From a bacterium (GTDB lineage: Bacteria > Patescibacteriota > Minisyncoccia > UBA6257 > GWB1-50-10), in NCBI GenBank assembly GCA_021814165.1, contig JAKAIX010000002.1, positions 5,371-69,370 of the forward strand: a stretch of 64,000 bases of DNA. The letters run 5' to 3'. Below the pieces are notes generated by a model. That model ran no database searches. It worked only from the letters and a program-made list of their open reading frames with translations, and was not told the origin of the DNA. The translations under genes and the position numbers were made by a program. Positions 1,741-19,444 of this stretch are shown here, piece by piece. The first letter of the stretch is position 1; every line of letters begins with the position of its first letter.

Positions 1741-1744
1741 CGGC

Positions 1745-2557
1745 ATGTCCAAAAGGAAAAATCTTGTTCTGGGAGGAAAAGGATTCGTAGGCGCCGAACT
1801 CGTGCGGCTCCTTGAAGAGAAGGGCGAGGAAATAAGAATCATAGACAGAAAACTCGGCGACGACCTGAAACACGCCGAGAAATACGCGGAAATGTTCGAG
1901 TGGGCGGATCGCACATGGTTTATCGCCTGGGAGATAGGAATTTGGAAGCACGCAACCGATCCCGCGTATCAGATAGGCACTTTGGCCGCGAGCATCGATC
2001 TCTGCAAGTCCGTCTTCGGTGCATTGGAAAAAGCGAAGAAACCCTTCCTTTTCGTAAGCACCCAGTTCGCCGGATATCCGAGCGTTCTCGGATCGGTAAA
2101 GAGGGTCGGAGAAGTATGGACAACGCTTCTCGGCGGGCTCACCGCGCGTTTCTGGAACGTATACGGATTCGAGGAGATAGGAGAAAAAAGCCACGTGGTC
2201 CCCGATATGATCTATAATGCCCTTACCAAAAAACGTATCACGCTTCTCACGAACGGCGAAGAGACGCGGCAGTTTCTCTTCGTGAGGGATGCGGCGGAAG
2301 GACTCCTGCACCAATTTGAGACCGGGCAACCGGTTGCGGATATCACGAACGGCGAGTGGGTTTCGATAAAAAGCGTGGCGGACATGATCGCCGCAAAAAC
2401 GGGCACCGTGGTAGAAACCGGAGACGGAACCGGGCACGCTTCTTTTGCGGAACCAAAAAATATCCTCTCCGGATGGAGCCCTCGCTTTACTCTCGACGAG
2501 GGGCTGGCACTCACCATCGATCGCATACGAGAGTCGATGCAACAAAAACAAACATGA
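1745..2557 (+). CDS. short-chain NAD(P)-dependent sugar-nucleotide reductase/epimerase (RmlD-like size)
   Basis: Start moved to the ATG at 1745 (MSKRKNLVLGGKGFVGAELVRLLEEKGEEIRIID), a Rossmann GxxGxxG N-terminus. The 270 aa length is in the range of 4-keto-sugar reductases. Confidence 0.6.
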   Translation: MSKRKNLVLGGKGFVGAELVRLLEEKGEEIRIIDRKLGDDLKHAEKYAEMFEWADRTWFIAWEIGIWKHATDPAYQIGTLAASIDLCKSVFGALEKAKKPFLFVSTQFAGYPSVLGSVKRVGEVWTTLLGGLTARFWNVYGFEEIGEKSHVVPDMIYNALTKKRITLLTNGEETRQFLFVRDAAEGLLHQFETGQPVADITNGEWVSIKSVADMIAAKTGTVVETGDGTGHASFAEPKNILSGWSPRFTLDEGLALTIDRIRESMQQKQT

Positions 2558-3495: not shown

Positions 3496-3499
3496 ACTG

Positions 3500-4489: not shown

Positions 4490-4532
4490 ACGTATGAGGC
4501 GCGCATCATCTTCCCGATCGCGTTTTCCCGAA

Positions 4533-5237
4533 ATGGATTTTGTAATCCTCTGCGGAGGGCTTGGAACGCGGCTCCGTACGACACTCCCGAATATGCCGAA
4601 AGCGCTCGCGCCCATTGCGGGGACCCCGTTTCTCGACATTCTCCTCCATCACCTCTTTAAGGCGGGGTTTAAGCGCATTATTCTCGCCGTAGGTCATCTT
4701 CAAAATCCCATCATCTCCCGCTATGGAAACGACTCCCGGATTTTGTTTGCAAAAGAACGCGAGCCGCTCGGTACGGGAGGTGCGGTGCGAAATGCGCGGC
4801 GTTTGATCAAAAGTCCCCATTTTTTCGTGGCAAACGGAGACACGTTCTCCGACGCGGATTACCAAAATTTTTTTACCGTTCACAAAACAAAAGGCGGCAT
4901 CGTCACGATGGGCATTACGCGGGCGGGCAGACGCACCGACGCGGGAAACATACTCACCGATGCGTCGGGACGCATTCTTTCATTTAAAGAGAAACGAGGC
5001 GCACGCTCCCGATCGGGAATCAGTGCGGGGCTTTATTGCATGAGACGGGAGGTTTTTGACGTTATGCCAAAACGAAAACGGTTCTCGCTTGAAGAAGAGG
5101 TTTTTTCCTCGCTCGCGCGGCAGGGGGTTCTCTTCGGCGTACCGATTAAACGCGAAGCAATCGACATCGGCACTCCTGCGCGATACGCACGCGCGAAACG
5201 CATCCTCAAGAAACATCGGCCGTCTTCCTTGCGATGA
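4533..5237 (+). CDS. sugar-1-phosphate nucleotidyltransferase, HddC-like (guanylyltransferase candidate)
   Basis: Start at the ATG at 4533 (MDFVILCGGLGTRLR...), the canonical G-x-G-T-R nucleotidyltransferase N-terminus. 234 aa. Its 3' end overlaps the convergent methyltransferase gene by 32 bp. Confidence 0.65.
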   Translation: MDFVILCGGLGTRLRTTLPNMPKALAPIAGTPFLDILLHHLFKAGFKRIILAVGHLQNPIISRYGNDSRILFAKEREPLGTGGAVRNARRLIKSPHFFVANGDTFSDADYQNFFTVHKTKGGIVTMGITRAGRRTDAGNILTDASGRILSFKEKRGARSRSGISAGLYCMRREVFDVMPKRKRFSLEEEVFSSLARQGVLFGVPIKREAIDIGTPARYARAKRILKKHRPSSLR

Positions 5238-6237
5238 CGGTTATTTGCGCGCCAAGACCGAACATGTTGGCGATGCTGTTGCCGGGGAAGTAATCGCAAA
5301 GCCCGAGCACGCGCTTTATCATCCGAACCGGTTTTTTCCCGAACCACGAACGCGAGACGGGCCATTTCGTGCCGCACATCGTTTCAAAAGAAGAAAAAAG
5401 ATTGCTGAAGAAATCGGTCGAATACGTTTTTTCAAGAGAAAATCCCGCTTCCTTAAAGAGACGCTGGAACGTTGCCTTCCGATAATGAACGTAATGGAGC
5501 GGGATTACGAAGCCGTCCCACCACTTCCCGCACATTATCGAACTGATACCGCCGTACTGGGGCACACCGATTACCAGCACCCCTCCGGGCTTCAAAACGC
5601 GGTTGAGTTCCCTGAGCGCTGCCGCGGGATCGGGGAAATGCTCAAAAACATGGAGAAGATGCACGGCATCGAAAAAACCGTCAGAAAATTCGAGCGTGTC
5701 CACGCTCCCTACGGAAATATTCTTCAGCCCCTGGCTTACCGCCGACGCCACCGCAATCGGACTCGGATCAACGCCGAACGTTTCCCATCCCAAGCCCTTG
5801 AGGTCGGCGAGAAAATTCCCCGCACCACAGCCAAGATCAAGCAGCCGCCCTCCTTTCACGAAACGAGGGTAATGGGCGAACGCGAGACGAAACGGGAAAA
5901 GGGAAAACTGCCACCATCGTTTTTCGCCGTACCCGAAGTATTGCCCCAACGTCCTCCGTTTCAGTAATGCGAGGATGCGCGCGACTACGCCCGCATTGCG
6001 CGCTCCCGCCACCCTGAACGGCCCGTACGACTCGTCAAAGAAAGAAGAGAGGGCTCCGTAGGCAAGCTGGGGATCGGTGAAAACCGTGCCGCACGAGCTG
6101 CACCGCATAACGGCAAAGGCCACGCCGGGATAGACGCGTTGTACCTTTCCTGTTTCTTCCATGCGGGCATGTATAATTGCGTGTCGTTCCGCGTGGCACA
6201 CGGGACATTTTCCTCTGCTTTGGACAATCGTACTCAT
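5206..6237 (-). CDS. class I SAM-dependent methyltransferase with N-terminal Zn-ribbon
   Basis: Start at M23 (MSTIVQSRGKCPVCHAER...CSSCG), 1 nt after the stop of the upstream gene. Motif LLDLGCGAGNF (SAM motif I) and VLKPGGVLVI (post-II). Confidence 0.75.
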   Translation of the reverse strand: MSTIVQSRGKCPVCHAERHAIIHARMEETGKVQRVYPGVAFAVMRCSSCGTVFTDPQLAYGALSSFFDESYGPFRVAGARNAGVVARILALLKRRTLGQYFGYGEKRWWQFSLFPFRLAFAHYPRFVKGGRLLDLGCGAGNFLADLKGLGWETFGVDPSPIAVASAVSQGLKNISVGSVDTLEFSDGFFDAVHLLHVFEHFPDPAAALRELNRVLKPGGVLVIGVPQYGGISSIMCGKWWDGFVIPLHYVHYRKATFQRLFKEAGFSLEKTYSTDFFSNLFSSFETMCGTKWPVSRSWFGKKPVRMIKRVLGLCDYFPGNSIANMFGLGAQITVIARKTADVS

Positions 6238-7358
6238 GAAGAACTTTTTGCTTTTGCGATTTCTCCGAACAGAGCCTCGTACCGCATGGCAATTGTCTCC
6301 CACGTATGATCGCGTTTCCAGAGCTCGAACGCACGGTCCGTAATTTCGCGGCGCTCGTCTTTATGTTCGAGAAAATGTTCCGCGGCACTTGCCATTGCTT
6401 TGGGCGTTTTCACGATCGTGACGCACGTCTCATGGTCCCTCACATTTCCGATATCGGTAGTAATGAAGAGGGTCTTGCTTGCAAACGATTCGTACATCAC
6501 GAGCGGAGCGCATTCGAGTTTCGATCCGAAAAGGAACGCGTCGGATTCCTGATAAGCCGAGACCACGTACGAACGCGGGACGTTTCCGAGAATTCTGATG
6601 CGGCGATTCAAGATGCCCTGTGCGGCACAGAAAGGATAACAACTGTACCATGAATGCCGCGTCGGAAGACCTCCTATAATAACGAGCGTCGCGTCATCGC
6701 GATTTAATCTACGAAACGCTTCGATCACAAATTGATGCCCCTTCGCAAAAAAATGATTCGAAACGTCCAGGAACAGATGTGGCGTTGTAATATTGTAGTG
6801 GCTCTTGAATCCGATGGACGGCGCGAGAAATTCGGCGCCTGCGCCGTTCGGGATGACAGCGGCCTTATCTCCCAATCCATGCTTATCTCCGAACAGTTTA
6901 TCCCGATAGCGGGGGGAGGTATATACAATCCGATCATACTTGCGAAGCGCGTTTACATATGCACTTTCATAATACGAATTGAAACGCGGATCGCCCACCT
7001 TCGAAAGTCCCGGCGTACTTAACACTTTACGCGCATGAATCGAATCAGCGATCTCGAACGCGAGATCGGTCGTCCACGTGTCCGCGGCGAAATTAAGGAT
7101 AACGTCGTAGTTTCCTCCGAGAATGAACCGCCGATACGCCTCCTTTTCGCCGCGTATCCCTTTCACAAGACTTCCTACGACCCGAAAACCGCTGATGCGT
7201 ACTCCGTTTATAAGCGCGGGGCGCCCCTCGCAAAACGAGGTCGCGACCGTTACTTCATGGCCGCGCAGAACGAGCCCCTCGGCAATCTGACGTGCCTGTT
7301 CCGCAATGCCTCCCCCGCCGGGGGCATGGTAGAACTCGACTGTGATGAGTATTTTCAT
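6234..7358 (-). CDS. glycosyltransferase family 4-like
   Basis: Start at MKILITVEFYHAPGGGGIAEQ (GT4 N-terminal glycine-rich motif); about 374 aa; translationally coupled to its neighbours. Confidence 0.75.
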   Translation of the reverse strand: MKILITVEFYHAPGGGGIAEQARQIAEGLVLRGHEVTVATSFCEGRPALINGVRISGFRVVGSLVKGIRGEKEAYRRFILGGNYDVILNFAADTWTTDLAFEIADSIHARKVLSTPGLSKVGDPRFNSYYESAYVNALRKYDRIVYTSPRYRDKLFGDKHGLGDKAAVIPNGAGAEFLAPSIGFKSHYNITTPHLFLDVSNHFFAKGHQFVIEAFRRLNRDDATLVIIGGLPTRHSWYSCYPFCAAQGILNRRIRILGNVPRSYVVSAYQESDAFLFGSKLECAPLVMYESFASKTLFITTDIGNVRDHETCVTIVKTPKAMASAAEHFLEHKDERREITDRAFELWKRDHTWETIAMRYEALFGEIAKAKSSS

Positions 7359-8119
7359 GAAGAAAATACATCCTTCATCCAAACGTCTAGCATCGCTTCC
7401 CCCTCCCGACCGACAAGATATCTCGAAAGAATTTCCCGCACCGCTTTCTTTTCATCGATTTCACCCGGCAACCGTTCGGCGAAGACGGTTATATTCGGTA
7501 ATTTTTTACCTCCGAATTTCCGATATACCGGAAGCGGTATAAACATGCCCGGTATGTTCAGGGCCGGCACCTGGAATCGCTTCGCGAGATCATTCGAGAT
7601 CTTGCGGAAACGCAAATTTCCAAAACCGAGTTTTTTCAAAACAAACTTATACTTCTCCTTATTCCATCCTTCTCCGTGGAACGCCCACGCCGCTTCCTGG
7701 GATCCGAACACGTGGCGTGAAATCTCGTAACGCTCCTTGGTGCCACCGAAAAGATAGTAGAAGATCGAGGTCGCGAAATCGGGAGTTTCCAAATGGAGAA
7801 CCCCGTGCGGTTTCAACCACCTGCGCCATTCGAGAAGCAGACGGAGCGCATCGGCTCTTCTAAAATGCTCGAATACGTGGTGGCCGCGAATTTCCGCGAT
7901 AGAACCGGACGGATAATGGAGCGTGGCGATATCCGCGTAGCGATCGGCTTTCACTTTCATCACGGAATGCTCCGACTGGGGAAAATCGATATTAAGATAC
8001 CCCTCGAGGTACTTGTCGCCGCAACCCAAGTGGAGTTTCAAATCAGTTTCTTTCATAAGATAGTACCCATTGTATCGTAAACGCACCAAGCTGTTCAAGG
8101 AACTCTCGAAACGCGTCAC
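7355..8119 (-). CDS. putative SAM-dependent methyltransferase-like protein
   Basis: LHLGCGDKYLEGYLNID motif I-like; HHVFEHF motif; 4-nt overlaps with both neighbours. Confidence 0.5.
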   Translation of the reverse strand: MTRFESSLNSLVRLRYNGYYLMKETDLKLHLGCGDKYLEGYLNIDFPQSEHSVMKVKADRYADIATLHYPSGSIAEIRGHHVFEHFRRADALRLLLEWRRWLKPHGVLHLETPDFATSIFYYLFGGTKERYEISRHVFGSQEAAWAFHGEGWNKEKYKFVLKKLGFGNLRFRKISNDLAKRFQVPALNIPGMFIPLPVYRKFGGKKLPNITVFAERLPGEIDEKKAVREILSRYLVGREGEAMLDVWMKDVFSS

Positions 8120-9054
8120 ACGGAGTAAAACCTTCTTTTTATAAGCCTTCGGAGCGCCACGTAAAAGGAGAATGGCATGAGCCGGGAAAGCGCGTACACT
8201 ATCTTCAACTTTTTATTCCAAGCAGGAGATTGTCGTGCGAGGCGTCGCGCCCTCTTCGCATCCCCTTCGCGCCACGATTTTAGAAACTCCTCATATGCGA
8301 TCTGCGACTCCAATGTAAGAAGCTCGTTGGTATACTCCTCGGAAAAATGAGGATATAACGAAATAAGCTTCTGCACGAGAAGTTCTTTTTCCTCCGGATA
8401 AAAAAGTCCGTGACTGAAGGTAAAGCTTTTCTCGTGCATCCGATATTTGGTAAGCGGCTCCTCAAGATATGCGGCGCGCCAATCATGGAGGATGCGAAGG
8501 AACAAATCCATCTCTTCGATGAAATGAAAACGATCGTCGAAAACCTCTTGTAATCCCCTGACCGCCTCCTTCCGTATCATGACGGACGAAAGCACGAAGG
8601 GATAATCATTAATGAGATCGCGAAATACAAGCCCCTCCGGCGGTTTCTCTCGATAGGCAAGGTGGTGATCGCCGGAATTATTGAAGAAAACCGTCTGCGT
8701 ATAAACAAGACCGACCTCCGGACTTTTCTCAAAAAGAGCCACCTGCCGTTCGAGTTTCCGGGGAAGCCACAAATCATCATGATCAAGGAACGCAACGTAT
8801 TTTCCGCGCGCCTCCTTGAATGCGTAGTTACGCGCCTGTCCCAATGACGCGGCTTTTTCTCCCCTGAAATATCTTACTTTCTCCCCGTAACTTTTCGCGA
8901 TTTGAGGCGTCTCATCTTCCGAGGCGTCATCCCATGCGACGATCTCCCAGTCGGTGAAGGTTTGCGCAAAAACGCTTCCTATCGTCTCCCGAAGGAAAGG
9001 AGCGGAATTATGACAGTTGATAATAACGCTTACCGCGGGCGTTTTTTGTTCCAT
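8116..9054 (-). CDS. glycosyltransferase family 2
   Basis: VSVIINCHNSAPFLRETIGSV...WDDASED...LDHDD are classic GT2 (DXD) signatures; 312 aa. Confidence 0.8.
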   Translation of the reverse strand: MEQKTPAVSVIINCHNSAPFLRETIGSVFAQTFTDWEIVAWDDASEDETPQIAKSYGEKVRYFRGEKAASLGQARNYAFKEARGKYVAFLDHDDLWLPRKLERQVALFEKSPEVGLVYTQTVFFNNSGDHHLAYREKPPEGLVFRDLINDYPFVLSSVMIRKEAVRGLQEVFDDRFHFIEEMDLFLRILHDWRAAYLEEPLTKYRMHEKSFTFSHGLFYPEEKELLVQKLISLYPHFSEEYTNELLTLESQIAYEEFLKSWREGDAKRARRLARQSPAWNKKLKIVYALSRLMPFSFYVALRRLIKRRFYSV

Positions 9055-10196
9055 TGAAAAAATGTTGTTATGGCGCGGATAACCCTGTCCTGCTCGTCTT
9101 TCGTCACGTCGGGATGGAGCGGGAGCGAGAGAAGTTCGCTATATATTTGTTCCGTCACGGGGAATGCAACGCCCCGTTTCCTGAAATAACTCAGGAGGTG
9201 GCTGGGATAGTAATGGATACCGGTCTCGATGCCCTGCTTTGCCAGATGTTCCCTAAGTGCGTCACGCAACCCGCCTAATACCCGTATCGGATATATGTGC
9301 GGCACCACAGAACGGTAATCCGTCTTAAAAAGAACGATTCCGTTTGCATTTGCGAGAAGCCGATAATACCTCTTGGAAAGCGATTGTCTTTTCTTCTTAA
9401 ACTTTCCGAATTTCTTGAGTTGCGTTCGCCCGATCGCCGCCGAGATATTCGTCATGTGATACCGGTATCCCTGACGTACCACGTCAAACTCCCAGCTTCT
9501 CTCGCCCTTGTATCGTTTCTCCGAGTCGCCCATAACGCCGAGAAGGCGGGCGTCTCTCACATACCGTAGAACGCGCTTATCGGCGGTCACAACCGCCCCT
9601 CCGTCCCCCGAAGTGATGTTTTTAATCGGGTCAAAGCTGAAACATACGATGTCTCCGAACGAACCGACGAGTTTCCCCTTATGAACCGTTCCGAACGCAT
9701 GGGCTGCGTCTTCGATGACGCGCAAACGGTGTTTTCTCGCAAACGTGTAGATCTTCGTTAAATCCCCCGGGTCCCCGGCATAATGCACCGGTATGATCGC
9801 TTTCGTCTTCCTGGTTAATTTTCTTTCAGCGTCTTTTAAATCGATTGTCACGTTTTTCGGATCTATCTCACAGGCGACGGGAACGGCGCCTGCGGCGCGT
9901 ATTGCCTGGAAATCGGAGAGATATGTCAGGGACTGCACCAGAACCTCATCGCCCGGTTTCGTAACCGCCGCTACCGCAAGGTGGAGTGCCGAGGTGCCGG
10001 TATTCACGCATGCCACTTCTCCCTTTGTCCGGAGAAATTTTTTTAGCTCCGATTCAAATGCCTTAACCTCACCCCCCATGCCAAAATATCCCACCTCGAG
10101 CATTACATGACGCACGGCATTCACTTCCTTCATATCTACCACCGATTTCGAAAGCTTGATTGCTTTTTTATTGGTAGTGTTCCGCATCTGCTTCAT
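9030..10196 (-). CDS. DegT/DnrJ/EryC1/StrS-family sugar aminotransferase (PLP-dependent)
   Basis: Motif SFDPIKNITSGDGGAVVT (lysine-containing PLP site) and overall family conservation. Start set to the MKQ codon just after the upstream stop; the longer track start overlaps the upstream gene. Confidence 0.85.
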   Translation of the reverse strand: MKQMRNTTNKKAIKLSKSVVDMKEVNAVRHVMLEVGYFGMGGEVKAFESELKKFLRTKGEVACVNTGTSALHLAVAAVTKPGDEVLVQSLTYLSDFQAIRAAGAVPVACEIDPKNVTIDLKDAERKLTRKTKAIIPVHYAGDPGDLTKIYTFARKHRLRVIEDAAHAFGTVHKGKLVGSFGDIVCFSFDPIKNITSGDGGAVVTADKRVLRYVRDARLLGVMGDSEKRYKGERSWEFDVVRQGYRYHMTNISAAIGRTQLKKFGKFKKKRQSLSKRYYRLLANANGIVLFKTDYRSVVPHIYPIRVLGGLRDALREHLAKQGIETGIHYYPSHLLSYFRKRGVAFPVTEQIYSELLSLPLHPDVTKDEQDRVIRAITTFFQWNKKRPR

Positions 10197-10197
10197 T

Positions 10198-11103
10198 TTA
10201 TTTCTTTTTCGCGACGTAGAACATATAGCGCCCCGCATCGGGAACCGATTCGGCTACGGCAAGCTCCGACTTCATGAGCAACTTGGTTTCTTCTTCATCC
10301 AATCCGGAGGGACGGGCGACCGGCGCAAGCGGATCCCCCTCGATACCGGAACAGTTTCCTATCCCCATCACACCGAGAACATCAAAACCCGTTTCTTCGA
10401 GGAATTGCTTTGTTTCGTCGTTCGATCCCCACACGAAGTGTATGTCGGTATTCCACAATACCCCTTCTTTCTTCTCCAATATAACCGGAACGTCGGACCA
10501 TTTCCCGCAAGCGATGGAGTACAAAAGACTGAAATAACGCGACCTGAAGGAGGCGCACAGGAGTCCTCCCGGCTTTAACACCCTCAGAATTTCCTTCGTT
10601 ACCGATTCCCACCCGGGGAGAAAAAATGCAACCTCGATAAACAACACCGCATCGAAAGAGTTATCCTTGCTCTGTTTTAAAAACGGCACGAGATCGTCTA
10701 CGCGATATTCCGTGGAAGAAAGATTTTTTTCTTCCTTATACGCCTCGGCAACCCGGATCGCTTCGGGAGAAATATCAACACCTACCACCTTCCCGCCGGA
10801 ACGCACATAGTGCTCGGCGATAAGCGACGAGAAACGCCCCTGTCCGCATCCGAGGTCGAGGAACGAGCCGACAGGCGACACGTGATTTTCCCGGAAATAT
10901 TTTTCCATCCAGAACCAATACTGATCTCTGTAATACGCTTCGTCGGCGTCACCGGTCATACTATGACACTCCGCCGATCGGATAACCAACTTCCGGTGCC
11001 GCTCGGCGCGGAACGTGCGCCCCCCGAATCGCTCGTCCCACTTATGAAGGATGTGCAGCGCTTTTTCAAAAGCTCGAATGAAGAGGTGGGTAATTCTATA
11101 CAT
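10198..11103 (-). CDS. class I SAM-dependent methyltransferase
   Basis: FLDLGCGQGRFS (motif I) and VLKPGGLL (post-II); 301 aa. Confidence 0.75.
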   Translation of the reverse strand: MYRITHLFIRAFEKALHILHKWDERFGGRTFRAERHRKLVIRSAECHSMTGDADEAYYRDQYWFWMEKYFRENHVSPVGSFLDLGCGQGRFSSLIAEHYVRSGGKVVGVDISPEAIRVAEAYKEEKNLSSTEYRVDDLVPFLKQSKDNSFDAVLFIEVAFFLPGWESVTKEILRVLKPGGLLCASFRSRYFSLLYSIACGKWSDVPVILEKKEGVLWNTDIHFVWGSNDETKQFLEETGFDVLGVMGIGNCSGIEGDPLAPVARPSGLDEEETKLLMKSELAVAESVPDAGRYMFYVAKKK

Positions 11104-11107
11104 GGAT

Positions 11108-13303
11108 TTAGAGACAAAAACGCATCAGCGCCCGGAAACTCTCATCTCCGTACATCAGATAAGAGTTCGGATCGCGCGAAGGAGGATAATGTTTCGCGTG
11201 TTGCGCGATAACGCCGAGCTGAGGAAGGAGCGTCACAAGCTCGCGAGGAAGTCCCGATATTGCAACGTAATAGTCAGCCCACTCCCTGATTTTTTCCCTC
11301 CATCCGAATCTGTCCGAAAACGCCTCAAGTTCCTCTCCCTCCCCCGTCCTCTTCCATTGTACGAGGAGGGGGGAAAATAGGAAATTGGCGAGATCAAAGA
11401 ACGGGGCGGCCTCCTTTTCAGCGTGTTCAAAATCAAGCATATGCATTACTCCCTTGCGATCAAGAACAAGGTTGCAGAGGTCATAATCCCCGTGCTCGAG
11501 GGAAAGAGGAATTTTGAAGTCCTTACACGATTCGAGAGCGCGGAGAAACGAATCATACGCTTCCTTCGTGTCGTCGTCATTTACCCGCGCAAGTACCTGA
11601 GCCGCCTGTTCTTTAGCGTGCGAGATGAACGCTTTTTTATCCAAAACCCCACCGCTCTCGGTCGAATGATGCAATTCCGCAAGCAATCGAATTCCCTGCC
11701 GTACGAAGGGATCGATCCTTCGAAGCCATCTCCTTGTCGCATAACCGCGCAACGAGCGGGCGATTTTCTCCGCAAATAAAGATCTGATTTTTATCTGTTT
11801 GGGAGAAAATGTCCTCAAGGTTTCCCACAACCGTATTCTCACCGGTTTCCCTTCAAGGTGCTTTATAATCTCGACCGGCGGTTCATGCTTTTCTTCGTGG
11901 ATCCCGAGAACGTCGGGGATGCGCGAAAGGAGCGACTCGCTCTTGATAAGAGACCGCGCATAGCGCACCATCTCCACTTCGTGACGAAGAAAAATTCCCG
12001 AATCGTCCTTTCTTCCGACTTTACAAAATAAGATAGGCGTTCCCTTGCTCGTATCGTACACCGTGAAGTGCGCCGGGTTTCTGTCATTCATTCTCGAGGG
12101 GGTCATCCTTGCCTTATAAGAACATGCGTCTCCCTTTAGGAATCCCGCGTTCCGGAGAAGCGAGATGATGCGCGATGGAGCGGGGTTGCGGGACGATTCC
12201 TTACGGAGAATTATTCCCAAGCTTGGAGAAAAGTATTTTTCGAGACGCCGGGGAAATAACCCCAAAACAAACGCGATTACTCTCCACCTCAAGCTGGTAT
12301 TCGATCCGCGAGATATCGGCGAGAGAACGCGATGGAAAATATCAAAAGGAGTAACACTGTCCATCGTATTGTAATGAGGGAAGACGGAGTACAAGGAAGA
12401 AACCTTGAAGCGTTCCTCCCGCGCGATTTTTTTCAACCCGCGCGGCGAATAAATGAACGTTCGATACGCGATTCCCTTTCTTTTTTTCGTAATCCAATTC
12501 GCAAGAACGCGGGGAAGCAGGGTAACGCAGTGCACGTTTACGTGATCGTCCGGCGTTCCCAAAAAATACTGGATTCCCAAACGGTTCTCAATCGTTATGC
12601 ATATCGCTCCCTCCGGCTTCAATACCCGGTATAATTCGCGGAGTGCCGCACGCTGCATGGATCTCGGATCGGGCTCCTTTCCCCTTTTCTCTTCGAATTT
12701 TCCCTCCCAATGTTTCTCAAGAACAACGTCTTGTATCACCCCAAGCCACTCGAATACGCCGTTTAAAACCACCAGATCGAACATGTTATCGGGAAAAGGG
12801 AGTTTCGCGTTCAAATCCGCGGCAACGGGATGAATATTCGAAAGACCTTCCTGCTCCGATCGGATTTTCAAAAACTCAAGCGTTTCAATCGTCTTATCAA
12901 GCGCATACACCTGCGCGTGGTACTGTGCCGCCGGAACCGCAATTCCTCCCCACATAGCTCCTCCGTCCAGGATTACCGCTTCTTTCCTTGCGGGCCAGAG
13001 AAACTGCATATCCCCTCTTGCAAGAGGAGTAAAATGCGCGCTATATTCGGGAATTATTTTTTTTGCGCTCGCCATCCAGTCGCCGCTCTCCTTTGCTTCC
13101 TTATTCAATCGTCTCATCGTGTCTCTGTTTACGTTGCACCAGTATCCGTCCTCGGGCATGAAATCCGGAATGCCACGTACCACTTTGTATGCCGCACCGC
13201 ATGCATTACAAAAAAGGCGCTCTGCCTCGATTTGCAGAGCCGCACCGCAGTTAGTGCACGAAAATGTCGGCTGTGATACCGAATTACCCTGTTGTGTTTT
13301 CAT
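11108..13303 (-). CDS. three-domain fusion: Trm112-like Zn-ribbon + class I SAM methyltransferase + C-terminal aminoglycoside/choline-kinase-like (APH-fold) kinase domain
   Basis: 731 aa. N-terminus CTNCGA...CNACGAAYKVVRGIPDFM (Trm112-like ribbon). Middle region LKPEGAICITIENRL (MTase motif post-II). C-terminus LSLEHGDYDLCNLVLDRKGVMHMLDFEHA resembles the HGDxxxxN catalytic loop plus the downstream D of APH/ChoK kinases. Confidence 0.6.
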   Translation of the reverse strand: MKTQQGNSVSQPTFSCTNCGAALQIEAERLFCNACGAAYKVVRGIPDFMPEDGYWCNVNRDTMRRLNKEAKESGDWMASAKKIIPEYSAHFTPLARGDMQFLWPARKEAVILDGGAMWGGIAVPAAQYHAQVYALDKTIETLEFLKIRSEQEGLSNIHPVAADLNAKLPFPDNMFDLVVLNGVFEWLGVIQDVVLEKHWEGKFEEKRGKEPDPRSMQRAALRELYRVLKPEGAICITIENRLGIQYFLGTPDDHVNVHCVTLLPRVLANWITKKRKGIAYRTFIYSPRGLKKIAREERFKVSSLYSVFPHYNTMDSVTPFDIFHRVLSPISRGSNTSLRWRVIAFVLGLFPRRLEKYFSPSLGIILRKESSRNPAPSRIISLLRNAGFLKGDACSYKARMTPSRMNDRNPAHFTVYDTSKGTPILFCKVGRKDDSGIFLRHEVEMVRYARSLIKSESLLSRIPDVLGIHEEKHEPPVEIIKHLEGKPVRIRLWETLRTFSPKQIKIRSLFAEKIARSLRGYATRRWLRRIDPFVRQGIRLLAELHHSTESGGVLDKKAFISHAKEQAAQVLARVNDDDTKEAYDSFLRALESCKDFKIPLSLEHGDYDLCNLVLDRKGVMHMLDFEHAEKEAAPFFDLANFLFSPLLVQWKRTGEGEELEAFSDRFGWREKIREWADYYVAISGLPRELVTLLPQLGVIAQHAKHYPPSRDPNSYLMYGDESFRALMRFCL

Positions 13304-13309: not shown

Positions 13310-14044
13310 TCACGCGTTTCCGGAATCAAAATTATGGTATTTCTTCGCAACGAAGAGATTTGCCTTGAGAAGCCAGTAGAAGTTCCCGCAATCGAACCAT
13401 TCCCCTTTCAGTTTAAAGTAACTCAATTCGCCTCGCTCGAGATATACGCGATTAACATCCGTAATCTCGTACTCGCCCCGCTTTGAGGGCTTGAGCGTAT
13501 CGATGACATCGAATACATCGGGGTTGTACATATAAATCCCCACCGCGCACCAATTCGATTTCGGCGCAACGGGTTTTTCTTCTATGTCGATTACTTTTCC
13601 GTCTTTCATCTCGACGACGCCGTAATCCCGCGCCTCCGGATGCTCCTTGAGAAAAATGGCTGCCCCCTTCATTTTTTGGAACGCTTGAACCGGCTCTTTT
13701 AAGGAATCTTCGAATACGTTGTCGCCAAGTACCATGATGATTTTTTCTCCCTGGGCGAAATCTTTTGCGAGGCGGAGCGCATCGGCAAGACCGTTCGGAG
13801 CAAGCTGCACCGCATACCGAAGCCGCGCGCCGAGCCCCGATCCGTTATCGAGCAGGCTCGTAAAATGACTCATGTATTCGCCGCTTGTGACGATTAAGAT
13901 GTCGGTAACGCCCGCTTCGACGAGTTTCTCGATTGGAAAATAAATGAGCGGCTTGTTGTATACCGGCAAAAGGTGTTTGTTCGTGACCGCGGTCAAAGGA
14001 TGAAGACGCGATCCCGATCCCCCTGCTAAAATGACTCCTTTCAT
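13310..14044 (-). CDS. rmlA: glucose-1-phosphate thymidylyltransferase-like (short-form RmlA family)
   Basis: MKGVILAGGSGSRLHPLT N-terminus, 244 aa, directly downstream of rmlB. Confidence 0.75.
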   Translation of the reverse strand: MKGVILAGGSGSRLHPLTAVTNKHLLPVYNKPLIYFPIEKLVEAGVTDILIVTSGEYMSHFTSLLDNGSGLGARLRYAVQLAPNGLADALRLAKDFAQGEKIIMVLGDNVFEDSLKEPVQAFQKMKGAAIFLKEHPEARDYGVVEMKDGKVIDIEEKPVAPKSNWCAVGIYMYNPDVFDVIDTLKPSKRGEYEITDVNRVYLERGELSYFKLKGEWFDCGNFYWLLKANLFVAKKYHNFDSGNA

Positions 14045-14056
14045 ATCACTATTTTA

Positions 14057-15112
14057 TTATTTTGACATTGTACGATGACCTTTCCATAAATCAATATGCG
14101 GGTTAAAAACCCCGGTTCTTTTTCTCACCCTGTCGATCCATTCCCTATTATCGAGATACCACCGGATGGTAGCGGAAAACGCCTCGCGAAAATGCGTTGT
14201 AGGCCTCCAACCGAGTTCTTTTTTTATCTTCGACGCATCAATCGCGTATCGCCTGTCGTGCCCCGGGCGGTCTTTCACAAACTCGATCCATGACCGGTCG
14301 CGCTTGAACATGCGAAGGATGAGATCCGCGATTTCAAGGTTGCTCATCTCGTTATCGGCACCGATGTTATATACCTCCCCCGCCTTTCCTCTGAAAAGGC
14401 AGAGCCGCAGCGCTTCGCAATGGTCCAGCACGTAGATCCAGTCCCGCACGTTTTTCCCGTCGCCGTACATCGGGAGTTTCTTTCCTTCAATCATCCGCAA
14501 CACGAAAAAAGGAATGAGTTTTTCCGGGTACTGATACGGCCCGTAATTATTCGAGCAGTGCGTAACGACGACCGGCACTCCGAACGTGTTGTGATACGAC
14601 CGGCAAAGCATGTCACCGCCCGCTTTTGTCGCGGCGTACGGAACGTTCGGCGCAAACGCGGTCGTTTCCTTGAATTCCGATCGGGAACCGAGCGACAAGC
14701 TCCCGTACACTTCGTCCGTCGAAACCTGCACGTACTTTTCCACCCCCGGCATCGACTTTACCGCCTCGAGAATATTAAATACCCCCGCGACATTCGTGCT
14801 AATAAACTCTTTCGCGCCGACATGGATACTTCTGTCGACATGCGTCTCCGCCGCAAAATTAATGACGTGCGTCGGACGAAATTTCTTAAACGTTGCATCA
14901 ACCGCCGTTTTGTCTGCCACGTCGCCGCGAACGAATTGATAGCGGCGGTCGCGCGCGACGTCTTTCAGGTTATCGAGATTCCCCGAGTAGGTCAGTTTGT
15001 CGAAGTTTGCCACGCGACACCCGGGATGTCGCTTCAGAACGTATCGCACGAAATTCGAGCCAATAAAGCCGGCTCCCCCGAACACGAGTATTTTCACCGT
15101 CGATTTCATCGA
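14057..15112 (-). CDS. rmlB: dTDP-glucose 4,6-dehydratase
   Basis: Start at MKSTVKILVFGGAGFIGSNFV; YxxxK and the rest conserved (VSTDEVYG, CSNNYGPYQYPEKLIP, NVRDWIYVLDHC). Confidence 0.9.
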   Translation of the reverse strand, partial: SMKSTVKILVFGGAGFIGSNFVRYVLKRHPGCRVANFDKLTYSGNLDNLKDVARDRRYQFVRGDVADKTAVDATFKKFRPTHVINFAAETHVDRSIHVGAKEFISTNVAGVFNILEAVKSMPGVEKYVQVSTDEVYGSLSLGSRSEFKETTAFAPNVPYAATKAGGDMLCRSYHNTFGVPVVVTHCSNNYGPYQYPEKLIPFFVLRMIEGKKLPMYGDGKNVRDWIYVLDHCEALRLCLFRGKAGEVYNIGADNEMSNLEIADLILRMFKRDRSWIEFVKDRPGHDRRYAIDASKIKKELGWRPTTHFREAFSATIRWYLDNREWIDRVRKRTGVFNPHIDLWKGHRTMSK

Positions 15113-15153
15113 GTTTTTCTTCCTTAAAAGTATACGTCCGAGGGGGAGGAAGG

Positions 15154-17130
15154 TCAAAAAACGCTTTTCTTTTCTACAAAATCGGCAACCGCGGCTGCCG
15201 CACGCTCCGCGGCGTTCCCGTCGAGTGCGGTCCCGTAACGGACGAGAAACTCATTATTCGAACAGTCCGCGGAATATGTCTTCTTCTCAAGCCATTGCAA
15301 CACAGAATTCATAAGAACATCGGGATCGTCGGCGCATACCGCTCGTTTGTAAAGCAGCCGCTTCGCGTCCTCGGAGAGACCGAGATTTTTCGTAAGGCAG
15401 AACACCGGCACCGGGTACGTAACCGCCTGTATCACGGTCGTGCTCGGCATGTCGACGATAATCGCATCCGCGCAGGAAAAAAGATCCATCGTACCGACGC
15501 TCGATCTGATCTCAACTATCCCCTTCGATGCGAACGAATGTACATAGCGGTCAAGTCCCGATACGGCGTATGACCGTGTCGGATGGAGTTTCACTATCTT
15601 CGTTCCCCGCATTTCCGCAAGCCGTCCGATGATCGTTCGCTGCGCGTCATAAATGGAATTGTCGGACCACGGCACCGAATTGAAGGGGTATGCGTGGCTC
15701 AGATAATACATCGTGGTCGCATACACGATGCAAGGGCGTGGCGCATTCGTAACTCCCGCGCGGACGAGGGTTGCGTTCATGTCGACGGCTTCGCGCATTG
15801 CGCCGCTCCGCAACACATCGATACTCGCCGAACCCACGACTTTTAGCTCTTTCTTCAAGCCGAGCCCCTGAAGAGCTCTCCTGCGGTTCTCTTCCGATCC
15901 CTCGGCCCAATCCAGAAAGAGATCGGCTGCAGCCGCGTCATCGAGGGTCAACGACCCGATCGGCTGGTAATTCAGGTCGCCGTGCTGCCAACCGATTACC
16001 GGAATTGAGAGATCCTGTGCGGCTTTCGCGATACTTTTTGCGATGGGCGTCGGCGCGATCGAGAAAAGGAGCGCGCGGATTTTTTTCTTCCGGAAGAATT
16101 TCCGCGTCCTATCGTATGCGTGAAGCGACGCGGGCACGATCATGTGCAAAAAGAAGGAGATTCTCCCCCGGAAAAACGGAAAAAGGCAAAGGTCGCCGTC
16201 ACTCATGCTTTTTCGGAACGACGGAGACGTTTCGAGTTCTTTTAATAACGTTTCAAAGATACCGGCGTAGGAGGAACCGCACGACCATCGTTCCAGAGTT
16301 CCTTCGATCTGCCCCGATACCGAGTATCCTTTCCGGAAGAGCGCCTGGCCGGCAAAATTCCAATCATAGCCGCCCGAGAGGAGAATGACCGGCCTCGAAC
16401 GCAGCTGCTTCCGGAAAAGACGCACGGCGCGGGAAAATGACGTCGATCGGGCGATATTCACGAAATAAAAGAGTTGGGGGGATTTCTGGACTAGTTTTCT
16501 TAGAAACGAAAGGGAATCCGATTTTGACAAACGTCGGGAAGAAACGGTTTCCGAACCGGGATTCGTAATCTTCACCGTTTCGGAAGGCGCGAGGAGCGGG
16601 AGTATTTTCGAAAAAAGATTTTCACGGGGATTCCACAGCGACCCTTCGTCGGCACGACGCGCCTGAACGAGCGCGCCGCATGAATCGGAGAAATAACCCA
16701 CCGCGTCCGGCAGTTCCCGTGCAATGATGTTCCTCGCCTGGAACAAAACGGTCCCCAGCGAGAGAAAATTCGCGGTAAACGCGTTCAATCCGTACCACGC
16801 GAGCCGAAGCCCGCGTTCGCGGATCGGGGGGAGTTTTTCCGAAAGCGAAGAATCTATTTCCCGTACCGCGGCGATACATTGCTTCTCCAATCCTTCGGAA
16901 TACGAGGAAAGCTCATTGGATTCGTAGTACTCTTCGGGAATACGATACGAAAATTTCGCGGCATCGAACACGAATCGCGGTTCGACCGACGTCGGTATCA
17001 CAATGCACTTGTTCGCCGATATCGAGTCGCGCCTTGCGAGGATTTCCTTCGCGTGCGCCTCGGTGTGGGCAAAAAGAAGAAGTTTTCCTTCTCTCGATAA
17101 AAACTCCTGGAGATCGACGTCGTTATTCAT
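15154..17130 (-). CDS. large hypothetical GT-B-like protein with a C-terminal HP motif (candidate CMP-nonulosonate / capsule-type glycosyl- or glycerophospho-transferase)
   Basis: 658 aa. The C-terminal region IVKLHPTRSY..DAIIVDMPSTT resembles the HP motif of TagF, KpsS and sialyltransferase-like GT-B enzymes. Assignment is by motif only. Confidence 0.35.
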   Translation of the reverse strand: MNNDVDLQEFLSREGKLLLFAHTEAHAKEILARRDSISANKCIVIPTSVEPRFVFDAAKFSYRIPEEYYESNELSSYSEGLEKQCIAAVREIDSSLSEKLPPIRERGLRLAWYGLNAFTANFLSLGTVLFQARNIIARELPDAVGYFSDSCGALVQARRADEGSLWNPRENLFSKILPLLAPSETVKITNPGSETVSSRRLSKSDSLSFLRKLVQKSPQLFYFVNIARSTSFSRAVRLFRKQLRSRPVILLSGGYDWNFAGQALFRKGYSVSGQIEGTLERWSCGSSYAGIFETLLKELETSPSFRKSMSDGDLCLFPFFRGRISFFLHMIVPASLHAYDRTRKFFRKKKIRALLFSIAPTPIAKSIAKAAQDLSIPVIGWQHGDLNYQPIGSLTLDDAAAADLFLDWAEGSEENRRRALQGLGLKKELKVVGSASIDVLRSGAMREAVDMNATLVRAGVTNAPRPCIVYATTMYYLSHAYPFNSVPWSDNSIYDAQRTIIGRLAEMRGTKIVKLHPTRSYAVSGLDRYVHSFASKGIVEIRSSVGTMDLFSCADAIIVDMPSTTVIQAVTYPVPVFCLTKNLGLSEDAKRLLYKRAVCADDPDVLMNSVLQWLEKKTYSADCSNNEFLVRYGTALDGNAAERAAAAVADFVEKKSVF

Positions 17131-17154: not shown

Positions 17155-17940
17155 CTATTTTTCCGCAACGCCAAGAACCATAAGTTCGACGGCCCATCTG
17201 AAAAATTTGATGCCCGTAAAACGGGAAAACGCGCGGGCGGCTGGAGTGGAGAAGAAAATTCTCAGGAACGCGGCAATGCCTTTTATCGGCGGAAATTTCC
17301 ACGCGACCGGCAGCTGATGAAATTTCTCCGCATGGACGTTCTTGAATCCGTGCATCGCGAAGGTGTCGGCAAGAGACGTTGTGTCGTACGGACGGCAGTG
17401 CGTAGGATCTTCATAAAATACCTTCATCTGGCTCACCCAATCGGGAGTGAGAACCACTACCTTCCCGCCCGGTTTCAGCACGCGATAGGTTTCCTTCATG
17501 AGATGCGCCGCCGAGTAAAAATGTTCAATCACCGATTTGTGATACACCACGTCGAACGTATTGTCTTCAAAGGGAAACCGTTCCGATTCAAGGTTTGTCT
17601 TCTTGAGTTCCACTTGAGACGAGAGCGCTGTGTCGAGTTCCTTATCGATACCGGAACACCGAAACCCGAGATTCTTGAATGCGAGAAGAAAATCGCCTCT
17701 CCCGCACCCAACCTCGAGGAGGGTTCCGTTCTTTTTGAGAGAAAAACGACCGGATAAGTATCCGGCGAGTTTCGCGGGATAGCTCGTTTTCGGAGTTCTT
17801 TCCTCGTTATATACCACCTTCAGATAGTCGGTGCTCATATAAGACCAGAGTAACTTTTTATGGGGAAAATAGGAAGTGGCTGAGGGAAACCATATAAAAA
17901 CTCCCCGCCATAAAACGCGGCGGGGAGATATACGCTTCAT
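17155..17940 (-). CDS. class I SAM-dependent methyltransferase
   Basis: LLEVGCGRGDFL (motif I) and VLKPGGKVVVL. The N-terminal 34 aa look non-native; an alternative start is M35 at 17838. Confidence 0.7.
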   Translation of the reverse strand: MKRISPRRVLWRGVFIWFPSATSYFPHKKLLWSYMSTDYLKVVYNEERTPKTSYPAKLAGYLSGRFSLKKNGTLLEVGCGRGDFLLAFKNLGFRCSGIDKELDTALSSQVELKKTNLESERFPFEDNTFDVVYHKSVIEHFYSAAHLMKETYRVLKPGGKVVVLTPDWVSQMKVFYEDPTHCRPYDTTSLADTFAMHGFKNVHAEKFHQLPVAWKFPPIKGIAAFLRIFFSTPAARAFSRFTGIKFFRWAVELMVLGVAEK

Positions 17941-18871: not shown

Positions 18872-19444
18872 CTATGCGAAAAGTTCTTTCTCTACGAGTT
18901 CGCAGATTATATGCCCCGCGGTGATATGAGCTTCCTGGATCCGCGGCGTATTTGTCGAAGGAATCAAAAGAAGAATATCCGCTTCCCCCTTGAGTTTCCC
19001 TCCGGTCTCTCCCGTAAACGCGATCGTCACCGCACCGAGCGAGCGGGCTTTTTTGATTCCGCGGATCACGTTTTCGGCATTTCCGCTCGTGCTTATGCCG
19101 ATTACGACGTCTTCTTTTGTCACAATCCCTTCCACTTGACGCTCAAAAACCGCACCGTAATCGTAATCGTTTCCTATCGCGGTCAGAATCGAGGTGTTCG
19201 TGGTAAGTGCGAAAGCGGGCAAACTCTTTCGTTCGATTTTGAATCGCCCGGCGAGTTCCGCGGCAATATGCTGGGCATCGGCGGCGCTGCCTCCGTTTCC
19301 GAAAATAACGAGTTTGCCTCCCTTCCGATACGACCCGACGATTGAGCTCGTTATCTCCGCGATGACGGAAACGCAAAGGGATGAGACTTTCCTCATCGTC
19401 TCCTCGTGCTCTTGTAGTCGTTCATTGATGTTTTCTTCTTCCAT
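18872..19444 (-). CDS. SIS-domain sugar-phosphate isomerase, GmhA-like (sedoheptulose-7-P isomerase family)
   Basis: 190 aa; GNGGSAADAQH and ISTSGN are canonical GmhA/SIS motifs. Confidence 0.75.
   Translation of the reverse strand: MEEENINERLQEHEETMRKVSSLCVSVIAEITSSIVGSYRKGGKLVIFGNGGSAADAQHIAAELAGRFKIERKSLPAFALTTNTSILTAIGNDYDYGAVFERQVEGIVTKEDVVIGISTSGNAENVIRGIKKARSLGAVTIAFTGETGGKLKGEADILLLIPSTNTPRIQEAHITAGHIICELVEKELFA

Follow-up and report, generated by a model that had tools for sequence, protein, structure and literature searches.

A zinc-ribbon, methyltransferase and kinase fusion protein as a candidate bifunctional tailoring enzyme of a Patescibacteria surface glycan pathway

A single 731-aa open reading frame in the DNA studied here (the window, a stretch of 64,000 nucleotides from contig JAKAIX010000002.1) combines a zinc ribbon, a class I methyltransferase and an APH-fold kinase, as evidenced through ORF calling, Pfam, homologues and AlphaFold. 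The gene lies in a cluster of cell-surface glycan genes of about 33 kb in an ultra-small CPR genome. Judging from sequence conservation and the predicted structure, the protein probably contains an active kinase and an active methyltransferase that cooperate in the glycan pathway. The explanation as a whole, that it is an active bifunctional tailoring enzyme of a Patescibacteria (CPR) surface glycan pathway, has about an even chance of being correct. The particular ribbon-methyltransferase-APH family to which it belongs appears to be uncharacterized.

The reading frame occupies 11108..13303 on the minus strand, with an ATG at 13303 and a TAA at 11108-11110, and is separated by 6 nt from the RmlA-like gene ahead of it and by 4 nt from the next methyltransferase gene. 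Promoter, terminator and Rfam scans returned nothing relevant. Residues 14-47 (13163..13264, minus strand, as are the other domains and motifs below) form a Trm112-like Cys4 zinc ribbon according to profile matches, conservation and predicted strands, and its cysteines are retained in most of 79 homologues (C16 in 77, C19 in 71, and C32 and C35 in all 79). The family profile matches the Trm112-like/UPF0434 structures 2kpi (E 5e-5), 6zxw_H and 2hf1 over the ribbon, NCBIfam Trm112_arch matches it with E 6.6e-4, and PF03966 is precomputed in several homologues. In the AlphaFold (AF2) model the ribbon is made of four short beta-strands, and it has the CxxC...CxxC Cys4 arrangement of Trm112 and UPF0434 proteins (PF03966). 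A conserved helical segment, seen in the alignment and the AF2 model (residues 48-105, with Y54, W55, N57, W76, R96 and D98; 12989..13162), leads from the ribbon to the methyltransferase core.

Pfam, alignment and Foldseek identify residues 106-370 (12194..12988) as a class I SAM methyltransferase with an extended C-terminal part; Methyltransf_11 matches with E 1.9e-13, above its gathering score, and class I methyltransferases rank first in Foldseek. Motif I reads LDGGAMWGG (residues 112-120), D113 and D136 are invariant in the alignment, and all or nearly all of the 79 homologues share the SAM-binding residues, with further conservation at D176, E185, W186, E239, N240, H254, R265, Y280, R281 and Y311. 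The Rossmann-like fold, motif I and beta-2 acidic residue of class I SAM-dependent methyltransferases (PF08241/PF13649) are all present. Trm112-type ribbons are also paired with class I methyltransferases in Trm112-methyltransferase complexes (e.g., H. volcanii Trm112-Hvo_0019, 6F5Z), but the ribbon of the 731-aa protein is fused in cis at the N-terminus, and it occurs in a glycan-synthesis setting, not one of translation-factor or tRNA/rRNA methylation.

The rest of the chain, residues 378-731 (11111..12172), is a kinase domain with the APH/choline-kinase fold, based on Pfam, profile, AF2 and Foldseek evidence. The Pfam APH model (PF01636) matches with E 2.2e-4 and 21.5 bits, against a gathering cut-off of 23.2, and is precomputed in roughly a third of the listed homologues. 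The kinase-like fold that the initial annotation had expected is confirmed by the structure prediction, in which the C-terminal domain alone has a pLDDT of 95.4 and its best kinase match in Foldseek is APH(3')-Ia (E 8e-8), with other matches to maltokinase, ethanolamine kinase, homoserine kinase and macrolide phosphotransferases (MPH). The family profile also matches the ACAD11 kinase domain (E 3e-4), and amicoumacin kinase 6sui is among its weak matches (E 1.1). The catalytic residues comprise the invariant ATP-binding lysine K428 in an FCK motif (12020..12022), the catalytic loop HGDYDLCN (residues 604-611, 11471..11494; Brenner motif HxDxxxxN) and the metal-binding DFE, equivalent to DFG (residues 624-626, 11426..11434, within DFEH 624-627), all located by alignment. 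Across the 79 homologues K428, D606, N611, D624 and E626 are invariant, and E442 (the partner of K428), H604, G605 and F625 are at least 90% conserved. The bilobal fold, Lys-Glu pair, HxDxxxxN loop and DxE metal site are those of the aminoglycoside/choline/maltose kinases (PF01636; APH(3')-Ia 4FEW, maltokinase 4U94/5JY7), whereas identity to that superfamily is only about 14%, and the fusion to a methyltransferase and a long inserted helix (509-547) set the domain apart.

That one 731-aa frame carries a Trm112-like Cys4 ribbon, a class I methyltransferase and an HGDxxxxN-type kinase, as first described from the sequence, is borne out by Pfam, profiles, conservation, AlphaFold and Foldseek. The suspicion that two genes had been joined in assembly around 12300-12500 is negated: this region encodes residues 268-334, inside the methyltransferase fold, and includes the invariant R281 and Y311. 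Fifteen contigs from independent assemblies encode the identical protein, some 97 homologues (690-750 aa) are collinear with it over about 98% of the length, and the full-length model (pLDDT 93.3, pTM 0.92) is confident across the supposed junction, which together rule out a mis-assembled join. The pTM of 0.92 for the whole chain implies that, in the model, the methyltransferase and kinase domains are held in a fixed mutual arrangement. The Pfam APH score just under the gathering cut-off and the existence of two-gene versions elsewhere might be taken to favor either such a join or a C-terminal domain that is a pseudokinase scaffold, but with the kinase residues invariant, in addition to the contigs, homologues and model, this explanation is extremely improbable and effectively already refuted.

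A search for the same fusion in related genomes, suggested in the initial annotation, recovered these full-length homologues from CPR, Proteobacteria, Planctomycetes, Chloroflexi and Methanosarcinales, and 24 genomic loci carrying the fusion across bacterial phyla and Methanosarcinales. The family has 1070 representatives at E<=1e-30, or about a thousand 50%-identity clusters from bacteria and archaea. Three standalone ribbon-methyltransferases (P0162, P0140 and P0171) were examined as split forms. Two of them are followed by a gene, overlapping or adjacent, that scores against the N-lobe of the kinase in the fusion profile (E 1.7e-12 and 8.8e-10); the ORF downstream of the third, cut at 109 aa, has no profile score but shares an N-terminal motif with those two downstream genes. 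Because split ribbon-methyltransferase genes directly precede kinase genes, functional coupling of the two activities is supported. R96 is conserved in both fused and split forms, and the conserved methyltransferase residues are identical between them; no basic residues conserved only in kinase-fused methyltransferases (compare WbdD R203/H132/H133) were found, in a comparison where the standalone methyltransferases also have kinase-type genes adjoining. The earlier suggestion that phosphorylation and methylation are coupled in a sugar pathway thus holds, with catalytic residues kept in both domains, the fusion conserved and split pairs in existence.

In all related loci examined, the fusion gene is situated within a glycan cluster. 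Downstream of it in the window are genes for a 301-aa class I methyltransferase (immediately adjacent, 10198..11103), a DegT-family sugar aminotransferase (9030..10238) and a GT2 glycosyltransferase of the soluble, SpsA/chondroitin-synthase-like type (8116..9054), and immediately upstream are those for an RmlA-like glucose-1-P thymidylyltransferase (13310-14044) and a dTDP-glucose 4,6-dehydratase (14057-15157), together 13310..15157, followed by a 658-aa LIC12162-family-related protein (15154..17130; PF27859 in homologues), a recurrent upstream neighbor, all on the minus strand. The GT2 and DegT genes are downstream partners in 20 and 19 of 25 loci, respectively, and the 301-aa methyltransferase in 11, with a B12-radical-SAM enzyme in its place in about 10. 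The recurrent order is the fusion, the 301-aa methyltransferase or B12-radical-SAM enzyme, DegT and GT2, with LIC12162-family and NeuB/CMP-synthetase genes upstream. An ArnC/GtrB-type polyprenyl-phosphate transferase, as in an Arn-like pathway, was ruled out for the GT2, given its soluble type. The four or five further methyltransferases noticed initially, several with ribbons, correspond to four clear ones (5206-6303, 10198-11103, 17155-17940 and 19951-20934) and one faint one (7355-8119), with Cys4 ribbons in two. No ORF scanned across the window matched ABC2_membrane, ABC_tran or Wzt_C. Wzm/Wzt-type ABC transporter genes are present in only two of the 25 related loci (L006 and L031), and Wzx or Wzy_C genes occur in the majority of related loci. 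In L006 the fusion directly follows Wzm and Wzt, the latter with a Wzt_C module, which is the arrangement of wbdD in the E. coli HS O9 locus.

The initial annotation did not recognize this architecture as a characterized enzyme. This stands for the family, in which no characterized member is apparent and homology to WbdD is lacking, but not for the architecture, since two enzymes in which a methyltransferase precedes a kinase, WbdD from E. coli O9a (PMC3482155) and ORF6-N from K. pneumoniae O7 (PMC11231755), have been characterized and attach methyl phosphate at the terminus of a glycan. WbdD (E. coli O9a / K. pneumoniae O3; PDB 4AZS, 4AZW, 4UW0) likewise joins, in one chain, a class I SAM methyltransferase at the N-terminus to a protein-kinase-like kinase behind it. 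Its gene lies inside a glycan cluster, and it phosphorylates one sugar, the non-reducing terminal one in WbdD-type terminators, and then methylates that phosphate. The 731-aa protein has the same order of domains, both with intact catalytic residues. Membership of the WbdD family is, however, ruled out by sequence, kinase subtype, the missing coiled coil and transporter context. Comparison with WbdD of E. coli HS gave an hhalign probability of 3.5% and a BLASTP E of 1.5, and neither the PDB profile matches at E<=10 nor the Foldseek top 50 include a WbdD chain. The kinase of WbdD is similar to eukaryotic Src/ROCK-type kinases and that of the 731-aa protein is APH-type. WbdD continues C-terminally into a coiled-coil ruler of 250 residues and a membrane/WbdA-binding end, whereas the 731-aa protein stops with its kinase domain. 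Its AF2 model is compact and ends at the kinase C-lobe (residue 731), with no coiled-coil ruler or membrane anchor, and the sole long helix (509-547) lies within the kinase domain. The family also differs in its N-terminal ribbon, in its larger methyltransferase domain (about 265 versus 210 residues) and in having no ABC transporter in the window, WbdD-type terminators working with a Wzm/Wzt exporter whose CBM reads the terminal cap.

ORF6-N phosphorylates and then methylates terminal rhamnose in vitro, and the kinase of O7 ORF6 is APH/AmiN-like, its nearest structure being amicoumacin kinase AmiN (PMC11231755). Its methyltransferase and APH-like kinase match the 731-aa protein in architecture and fold class, and ORF6 is physically linked to GT2 modules, a GT2 gene being the most constant neighbor of the fusion. 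ORF6 is, however, about 1400 aa long, with a CBM, a coiled coil, two GT2 modules and an ABC-transporter pathway, whereas the 731-aa protein is compact and three-domain, with a zinc ribbon and, in its AF2 model, no CBM, coiled coil or GT domain.

In the bifunctional-enzyme explanation, the C-terminal APH-fold kinase would carry out ATP-dependent phosphorylation of a sugar hydroxyl, and the SAM-dependent methyltransferase next to it, rigidly positioned against the kinase and presumably stabilized in cis by the Trm112-like ribbon, would then methylate the same substrate. The methyl group would most likely be placed on the new phosphate to give a methyl-phosphate (phosphomethyl) decoration, as with WbdD and ORF6-N, although a neighboring hydroxyl or amine could be the target instead. 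We infer this reaction order and methyl placement, as well as the substrate, which would likely be a sugar of the lipid-linked intermediate at the cytoplasmic face, either the one that the co-conserved GT2 transfers or a nonulosonic acid. Action on an assembled or lipid-linked glycan, rather than on a soluble precursor, is proposed with moderate confidence, and methyl phosphate as the product more tentatively, by analogy, because both characterized methyltransferase-kinase glycan enzymes make methyl phosphate. Counting against this reading are the lack of a coiled-coil ruler, membrane anchor and, in the window, Wzm/Wzt, the lack of sequence homology to WbdD, and the Wzx or Wzy_C genes of most related loci, a setting in which no chain terminators would be expected. 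The conserved E185/E239-N240/H254 cluster is also compatible with a hydroxyl or amine methyltransferase, and the tight RmlA/RmlB/DegT linkage also fits action on a soluble precursor.

Such a precursor-level enzyme would phosphorylate a free sugar (at the anomeric position, like NahK, AmgK and maltokinase) or a nucleotide-sugar intermediate supplying the neighboring nucleotidyltransferase/dehydratase/aminotransferase module, and O-, N- or C-methylate the same soluble intermediate before transfer by the GT2. The fusion gene does lie directly between RmlA/RmlB and methyltransferase/DegT in the window, genes for an NTP-transferase, a 4,6-dehydratase, a cupin and DegT are found repeatedly on the downstream side in related loci, and the closest kinase folds include APH-family sugar kinases such as maltokinase (TMq 0.53). 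The nucleotidyltransferases, however, are RmlA- or RfbF-type and use glucose-1-phosphate from central metabolism, and therefore an anomeric kinase is not needed. Four loci (L014, L019, L027 and L029) retain the fusion, methyltransferase and GT2 without nearby nucleotide-sugar genes, and distant family members adjoin Wzx and glycosyltransferases without an intervening DegT or dehydratase, which makes this explanation unlikely. In six related loci, an NTP-transferase and a CDP-alcohol phosphotransferase are encoded directly upstream of the fusion, three with phosphonate genes, which may instead suggest a head-group pathway: the kinase would phosphorylate a small amino alcohol (for example ethanolamine), and the fused and 301-aa methyltransferases would N-methylate it to a phosphocholine-like group for nucleotide activation and transfer to the glycan. 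N-methylation of this kind is carried out by the plant and nematode phosphoethanolamine methyltransferases. Choline_kinase (PF01633) matches are precomputed in some homologues, ethanolamine kinase 2qg7 is at Foldseek rank 20 for the kinase domain, and PMT-2 structures are among the Foldseek matches of the methyltransferase domain, as are PMT-2 and phosphoethanolamine N-methyltransferase chains among the sequence matches of the 301-aa methyltransferase. These similarities are nevertheless no better than those to other APH or class I methyltransferase members, genes for a CDP-alcohol phosphotransferase, LicD or PEP mutase are missing from the cluster in the window, the nucleotidyltransferase next to the fusion is plainly of RmlA type (236 bits to TIGR01207), and the universal partners GT2 and DegT are left unexplained, and we regard a head-group pathway as improbable.

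To our knowledge, methyl-phosphate capping of glycans is known only from a small number of O antigens of enterobacteria, in which chain length and export are under its control. Here the same pairing of activities is built from different domain lineages, in a family spread over bacteria and archaea, including ultra-small CPR genomes. The database label of the family proteins is only 'class I SAM-dependent methyltransferase', as is that of WbdD in RefSeq, and the kinase consequently goes unannotated. Should its chemistry match that of the O-antigen enzymes, phospho-methyl decoration would be much commoner than has been assumed and would not depend on ABC-transporter termination; with a different chemistry, the family would represent a new sugar-tailoring activity, and in both cases ATP and SAM assays have a defined target in it. 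It is possible, if somewhat doubtful, that the ribbon-methyltransferase-APH proteins are a third, independently assembled class of methyl-phosphate-installing enzyme, without a ruler and mostly in Wzx/Wzy-type or protein-glycosylation pathways, in which the modification would be a decoration and not a terminator. Were this the case, methyl-phosphate or paired phospho/methyl decorations would be common, and overlooked, on the surface glycans of CPR bacteria, many other phyla and methanogenic archaea.

The 731-aa fusion, encoded at 11108–13303 on the reverse strand, reads exactly as described in the initial annotation, and its three domains, a Trm112-like Cys4 ribbon, a class I SAM methyltransferase (MTase) and an APH-fold kinase, are all borne out by profiles, conservation and models. 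The Pfam match to Methyltransf_11 (residues 112–193, E 1.9e-13) is well over threshold; the match to APH (residues 533–667) scored 21.5 bits against a curated cut-off of 23.2, and the zinc ribbon gave only faint Pfam matches and a weak NCBIfam match to Trm112 (residues 28–52). The gene sits in a tight same-strand array, with the end of an RmlA-like gene 6 nt ahead of its ATG and 4 nt between its stop and the start of the next methyltransferase. The earlier suspicion that two genes had been joined during assembly, around 12300–12500, can be dismissed. Searching 5.8 billion proteins yielded the identical sequence and ~97 collinear homologues of ~690–750 aa, with 30–50% identity across ~98% of the length, and the identical protein was found on 15 contigs of independent assemblies (the longest 775 kb), which excludes a local mis-join. 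The suspected junction corresponds to residues 268–334, within the MTase fold, and includes the invariant R281 and Y311.

The catalytic centres of both domains have been preserved under strong selection. Across an alignment of 79 homologues, the ribbon cysteines C16, C19, C32 and C35 are kept in 77, 71, 79 and 79 sequences, respectively, and the SAM-binding residues D113, G119/G120 and D136 of the MTase are conserved. In the kinase, K428 (FCK), HGD 604–606, N611 and DFE 624–626 are invariant or nearly so, with E442 conserved in at least 90% of the sequences. An artefact or a pseudokinase is effectively excluded.

AlphaFold2 modelling of the fusion with its homologue alignment was very confident (pLDDT 93.3, pTM 0.92), indicating that ribbon, MTase and kinase are packed in a defined and, as modelled, rigid arrangement. 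Approximate boundaries in the model are residues 14–47 for the ribbon, 48–105 for a conserved helical segment, 106–370 for the MTase and 378–731 for the kinase, and neither a C-terminal coiled coil nor a membrane segment is present over the full length modelled. Compared with the PDB using Foldseek, the full model matched mostly class I methyltransferases (YcgJ, RlmA(I), PKMT1/2, RebM and a Trm112-MTase complex), with APH(3')-Ia at rank 32. Modelled separately, residues 375–731 (pLDDT 95.4) matched APH(3')-Ia with an E value of 8e-8, as well as mycobacterial maltokinase (TMq up to 0.55), Plasmodium ethanolamine kinase, homoserine kinase and macrolide phosphotransferases. Profile searches of PDB sequences matched the N-terminus to Trm112-like/UPF0434 ribbons (2kpi, E 5e-5) and the C-terminus to the APH-like kinase domain of ACAD11 (E 3e-4). 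The separate model and these matches identify the C-terminal region as an APH-type kinase rather than another fold, in agreement with the protein-kinase-like fold first proposed.

When 1.84 billion cluster representatives were searched by profile, 1070 proteins scored at E ≤ 1e-30. Among the best 150 of these were many fusions of 640–730 aa, together with ~37 proteins of 345–395 aa that comprise ribbon and MTase only, with the C-terminus precisely at the edge of the MTase. Contigs were inspected for three of these short forms. For two, the next gene begins no more than a few nt away from the stop, and its product matches the fusion profile over the kinase N-lobe (profile positions 386–497, E 1.7e-12 and 8.8e-10); for the third, the downstream ORF, truncated to 109 aa by the contig end, had no profile score but has an N-terminal motif in common with these two. 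Fused or split, the MTase and kinase thus occur as a pair, and this pairing, kept through fusion and fission, is classic evidence for joint function. One set of conserved MTase residues (R96, D113, R148, N156, D176, E185, W186, Q217, E239, N240, H254, R265, Y280, R281 and Y311) is identical across 105 close fusions, 70 distant fusions and the 37 split forms. A distant relative from Verrucomicrobiia, P0099 (locus L034:3372-6236), is 954 aa long, with a second methyltransferase domain behind the kinase, and its gene is flanked by a Wzx flippase gene and acyltransferase/GT4/GT2/Wzy genes.

A comparative scan using one genome per species found 24 related loci, all in MAGs, from CPR bacteria (Colwell- and Staskawiczbacteria), Gamma-, Alpha- and Deltaproteobacteria, Planctomycetes, Dehalococcoidia, Omnitrophota, Lentisphaerae/Victivallales and Elusimicrobia, and from the archaea Methanolobus and Methanosarcinaceae. 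When ORFs from 25 loci were clustered, a conserved module emerged, on the same strand throughout, of which the fusion is the first gene. The slot directly behind it holds a ~300-aa class I MTase in 11 loci (the window included) and a B12-binding radical SAM enzyme in ~10, and the two methylating enzymes appear to be interchangeable as partners of the fusion; where the window-type 301-aa MTase (10198–11103) is missing, the radical SAM enzyme is ~490 aa long (L008, L015, L017, L021–L023, L025 and L031). A DegT aminotransferase comes next in 19 of the 25 loci, followed optionally by a CDP-glucose-type nucleotidyltransferase, a 4,6-dehydratase and a cupin. The fusion gene is always found in such a glycan-assembly module with a GT2, counted in 20/25 loci as the module end; this GT2 is of a soluble, SpsA/chondroitin-synthase-like type and not ArnC/GtrB-like.

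Upstream of the fusion, LIC12162-family proteins are encoded in ~13/25 loci, Wzx flippases in at least six, and Wzm with a Wzt bearing the Wzt_C module in two (L006 and L031). NeuB and CMP-synthetase genes occur in ~18/25 loci, where flanks are long enough. The archaeal loci L021 and L022 (Methanosarcinaceae and Methanolobus) share with the bacterial-type L008 the order CMP-synthetase, DegT, LIC12162, Wzx, fusion, radical SAM enzyme, dehydratase, cupin, NTP-transferase, DegT, GT2, which indicates that the whole module has been transferred between domains. In the window, a 658-aa ORF (15154–17130, reverse strand) without a Pfam, NCBIfam or PDB sequence match is 25–37% identical to the PF27859 "LIC12162" proteins repeatedly encoded immediately ahead of the fusion in other loci; given this kinship and the NeuB/CMP-synthetase genes, it is a candidate nonulosonic-acid transferase.

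The contig is placed in assembly GCA_027423885.1. The ClpB encoded at 38000–40660 (reverse strand) shares 74–78% identity with its counterparts in Minisyncoccia, Ca. Jorgensenbacteria and Paceibacterota, which makes the host a member of the CPR/Patescibacteria, probably with a genome below 1 Mb. For such a genome, the ~33-kb glycan cluster that contains the fusion (about 80–33051) is a large outlay. The cluster encodes RmlA/RmlB-type enzymes, a DegT aminotransferase and GT2, GT4 and GT1-like glycosyltransferases. The further methyltransferases reported initially are also present, four clear and one faint. The two with an N-terminal Cys4 ribbon (5206–6303, 365 aa, and 19951–20934, 327 aa, both reverse strand) are only distant kin of the fusion MTase (best BLASTP E 2e-6). 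Genes for NeuB, a KdsC-like phosphatase and a CMP-transferase form a set assigned to a nonulosonic or related acid, with a NUDIX gene alongside, and adjoin a GDP-heptose-type set comprising epimerase/dehydratases, a GHMP kinase (3500–4489) and a nucleotidyltransferase (4452–5237) at 1598–5237 on the forward strand, and a GmhA-like SIS isomerase (18872–19444, reverse strand). A heptose, along with a nonulosonic or related acid, is probably part of the glycan. Next to two Wzy_C proteins (O-antigen ligase/polymerase or PglL-like; 29062–30420, 452 aa, and 30541–33051, 836 aa) comes a 1150-aa protein that carries a peptidoglycan-binding domain (33175–36627, all reverse strand), and together these may represent the step that transfers the glycan and the target that receives it in an organism without LPS. 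No Wzm/Wzt transporter or Wzx flippase was found among the ORFs scanned across the window.

The architecture was initially thought to be uncharacterised, which is incorrect, as MTase-kinase proteins are known from glycan clusters. WbdD of E. coli O9a (MTase 1–210, kinase 211–459, coiled coil 460–708) halts polymerisation by first phosphorylating the terminal mannose and then methylating this phosphate (PMC3482155). In ORF6 from K. pneumoniae O7, the N-terminal portion is a second MTase-kinase, structurally different from WbdD and with a kinase nearest to the APH-family amicoumacin kinase; in vitro, a rhamnoside was phosphorylated, then methyl-phosphorylated (PMC11231755). Membership of the WbdD family is ruled out for the fusion. 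Against WbdD of E. coli HS (NC_009800.1, L036:27967-30093), hhalign gave the family profile a probability of 3.5%, aligning the SAM motif I region alone, and BLASTP gave E 1.5, confined to the HxDxxxxN...DF catalytic loop; WbdD chains were absent from the PDB profile matches and the Foldseek top 50. Relative to WbdD, the fusion family has an APH-type kinase and a zinc ribbon, lacks the coiled-coil ruler and usually resides in clusters without an ABC transporter. The kinase of ORF6 is also APH-like, a likeness judged from its published description. The fusion is best read as an MTase-kinase glycan-tailoring enzyme built from other domain lineages than the known ones and, by analogy, its family is predicted to carry out both WbdD activities in the WbdD order.

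The kinase would phosphorylate a sugar hydroxyl and the MTase would methylate the same substrate, with a methyl phosphate as the most economical product by analogy with both characterised enzymes. Invariant Arg, Tyr and His residues form a cluster in the MTase that could accommodate an anionic substrate; the E185/E239-N240/H254 set would suit a hydroxyl or an amine methyltransferase equally. The initial interpretation, coupled phosphorylation and methylation in a sugar pathway, finds partial support: for domains, coupling and glycan context, but not for novelty of architecture. Since the window has neither a ruler nor a CBM-bearing exporter, decoration is a more likely role there than chain-length termination.

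The position of the fusion between RmlA/RmlB and DegT could point instead to action on a free sugar or dTDP/CDP-sugar, but transferases of the RmlA/RfbF type work without a dedicated kinase, and at some loci just the fusion, an MTase and the GT2 are retained, making precursor-level action unlikely. A phospho-alcohol head-group pathway of the ethanolamine-kinase/PEAMT type is suggested by an NTP-transferase and CDP-alcohol phosphotransferase pair directly upstream of the fusion in six loci (L004, L015, L017, L018, L023 and L025). Three of these (L004, L015 and L025) also carry phosphonopyruvate decarboxylase, a phosphonate gene, and L004 and L015 encode a PEP mutase fused to a cytidylyltransferase. 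The window, however, has no such pair, and this pathway is quite improbable.

Tailoring of the glycan by the MTase-kinase remains the preferred reading. The family is widespread and uncharacterised, its proteins labelled only "methyltransferase". In RefSeq, even the experimentally characterised WbdD (L036:27967-30093) bears no label beyond "class I SAM-dependent methyltransferase". Annotation systematically overlooks the kinase halves of bifunctional MTase-kinase enzymes, and the fusion is a clear, testable candidate for a widespread phospho/methyl decoration of glycans, CPR bacteria and methanogens included.
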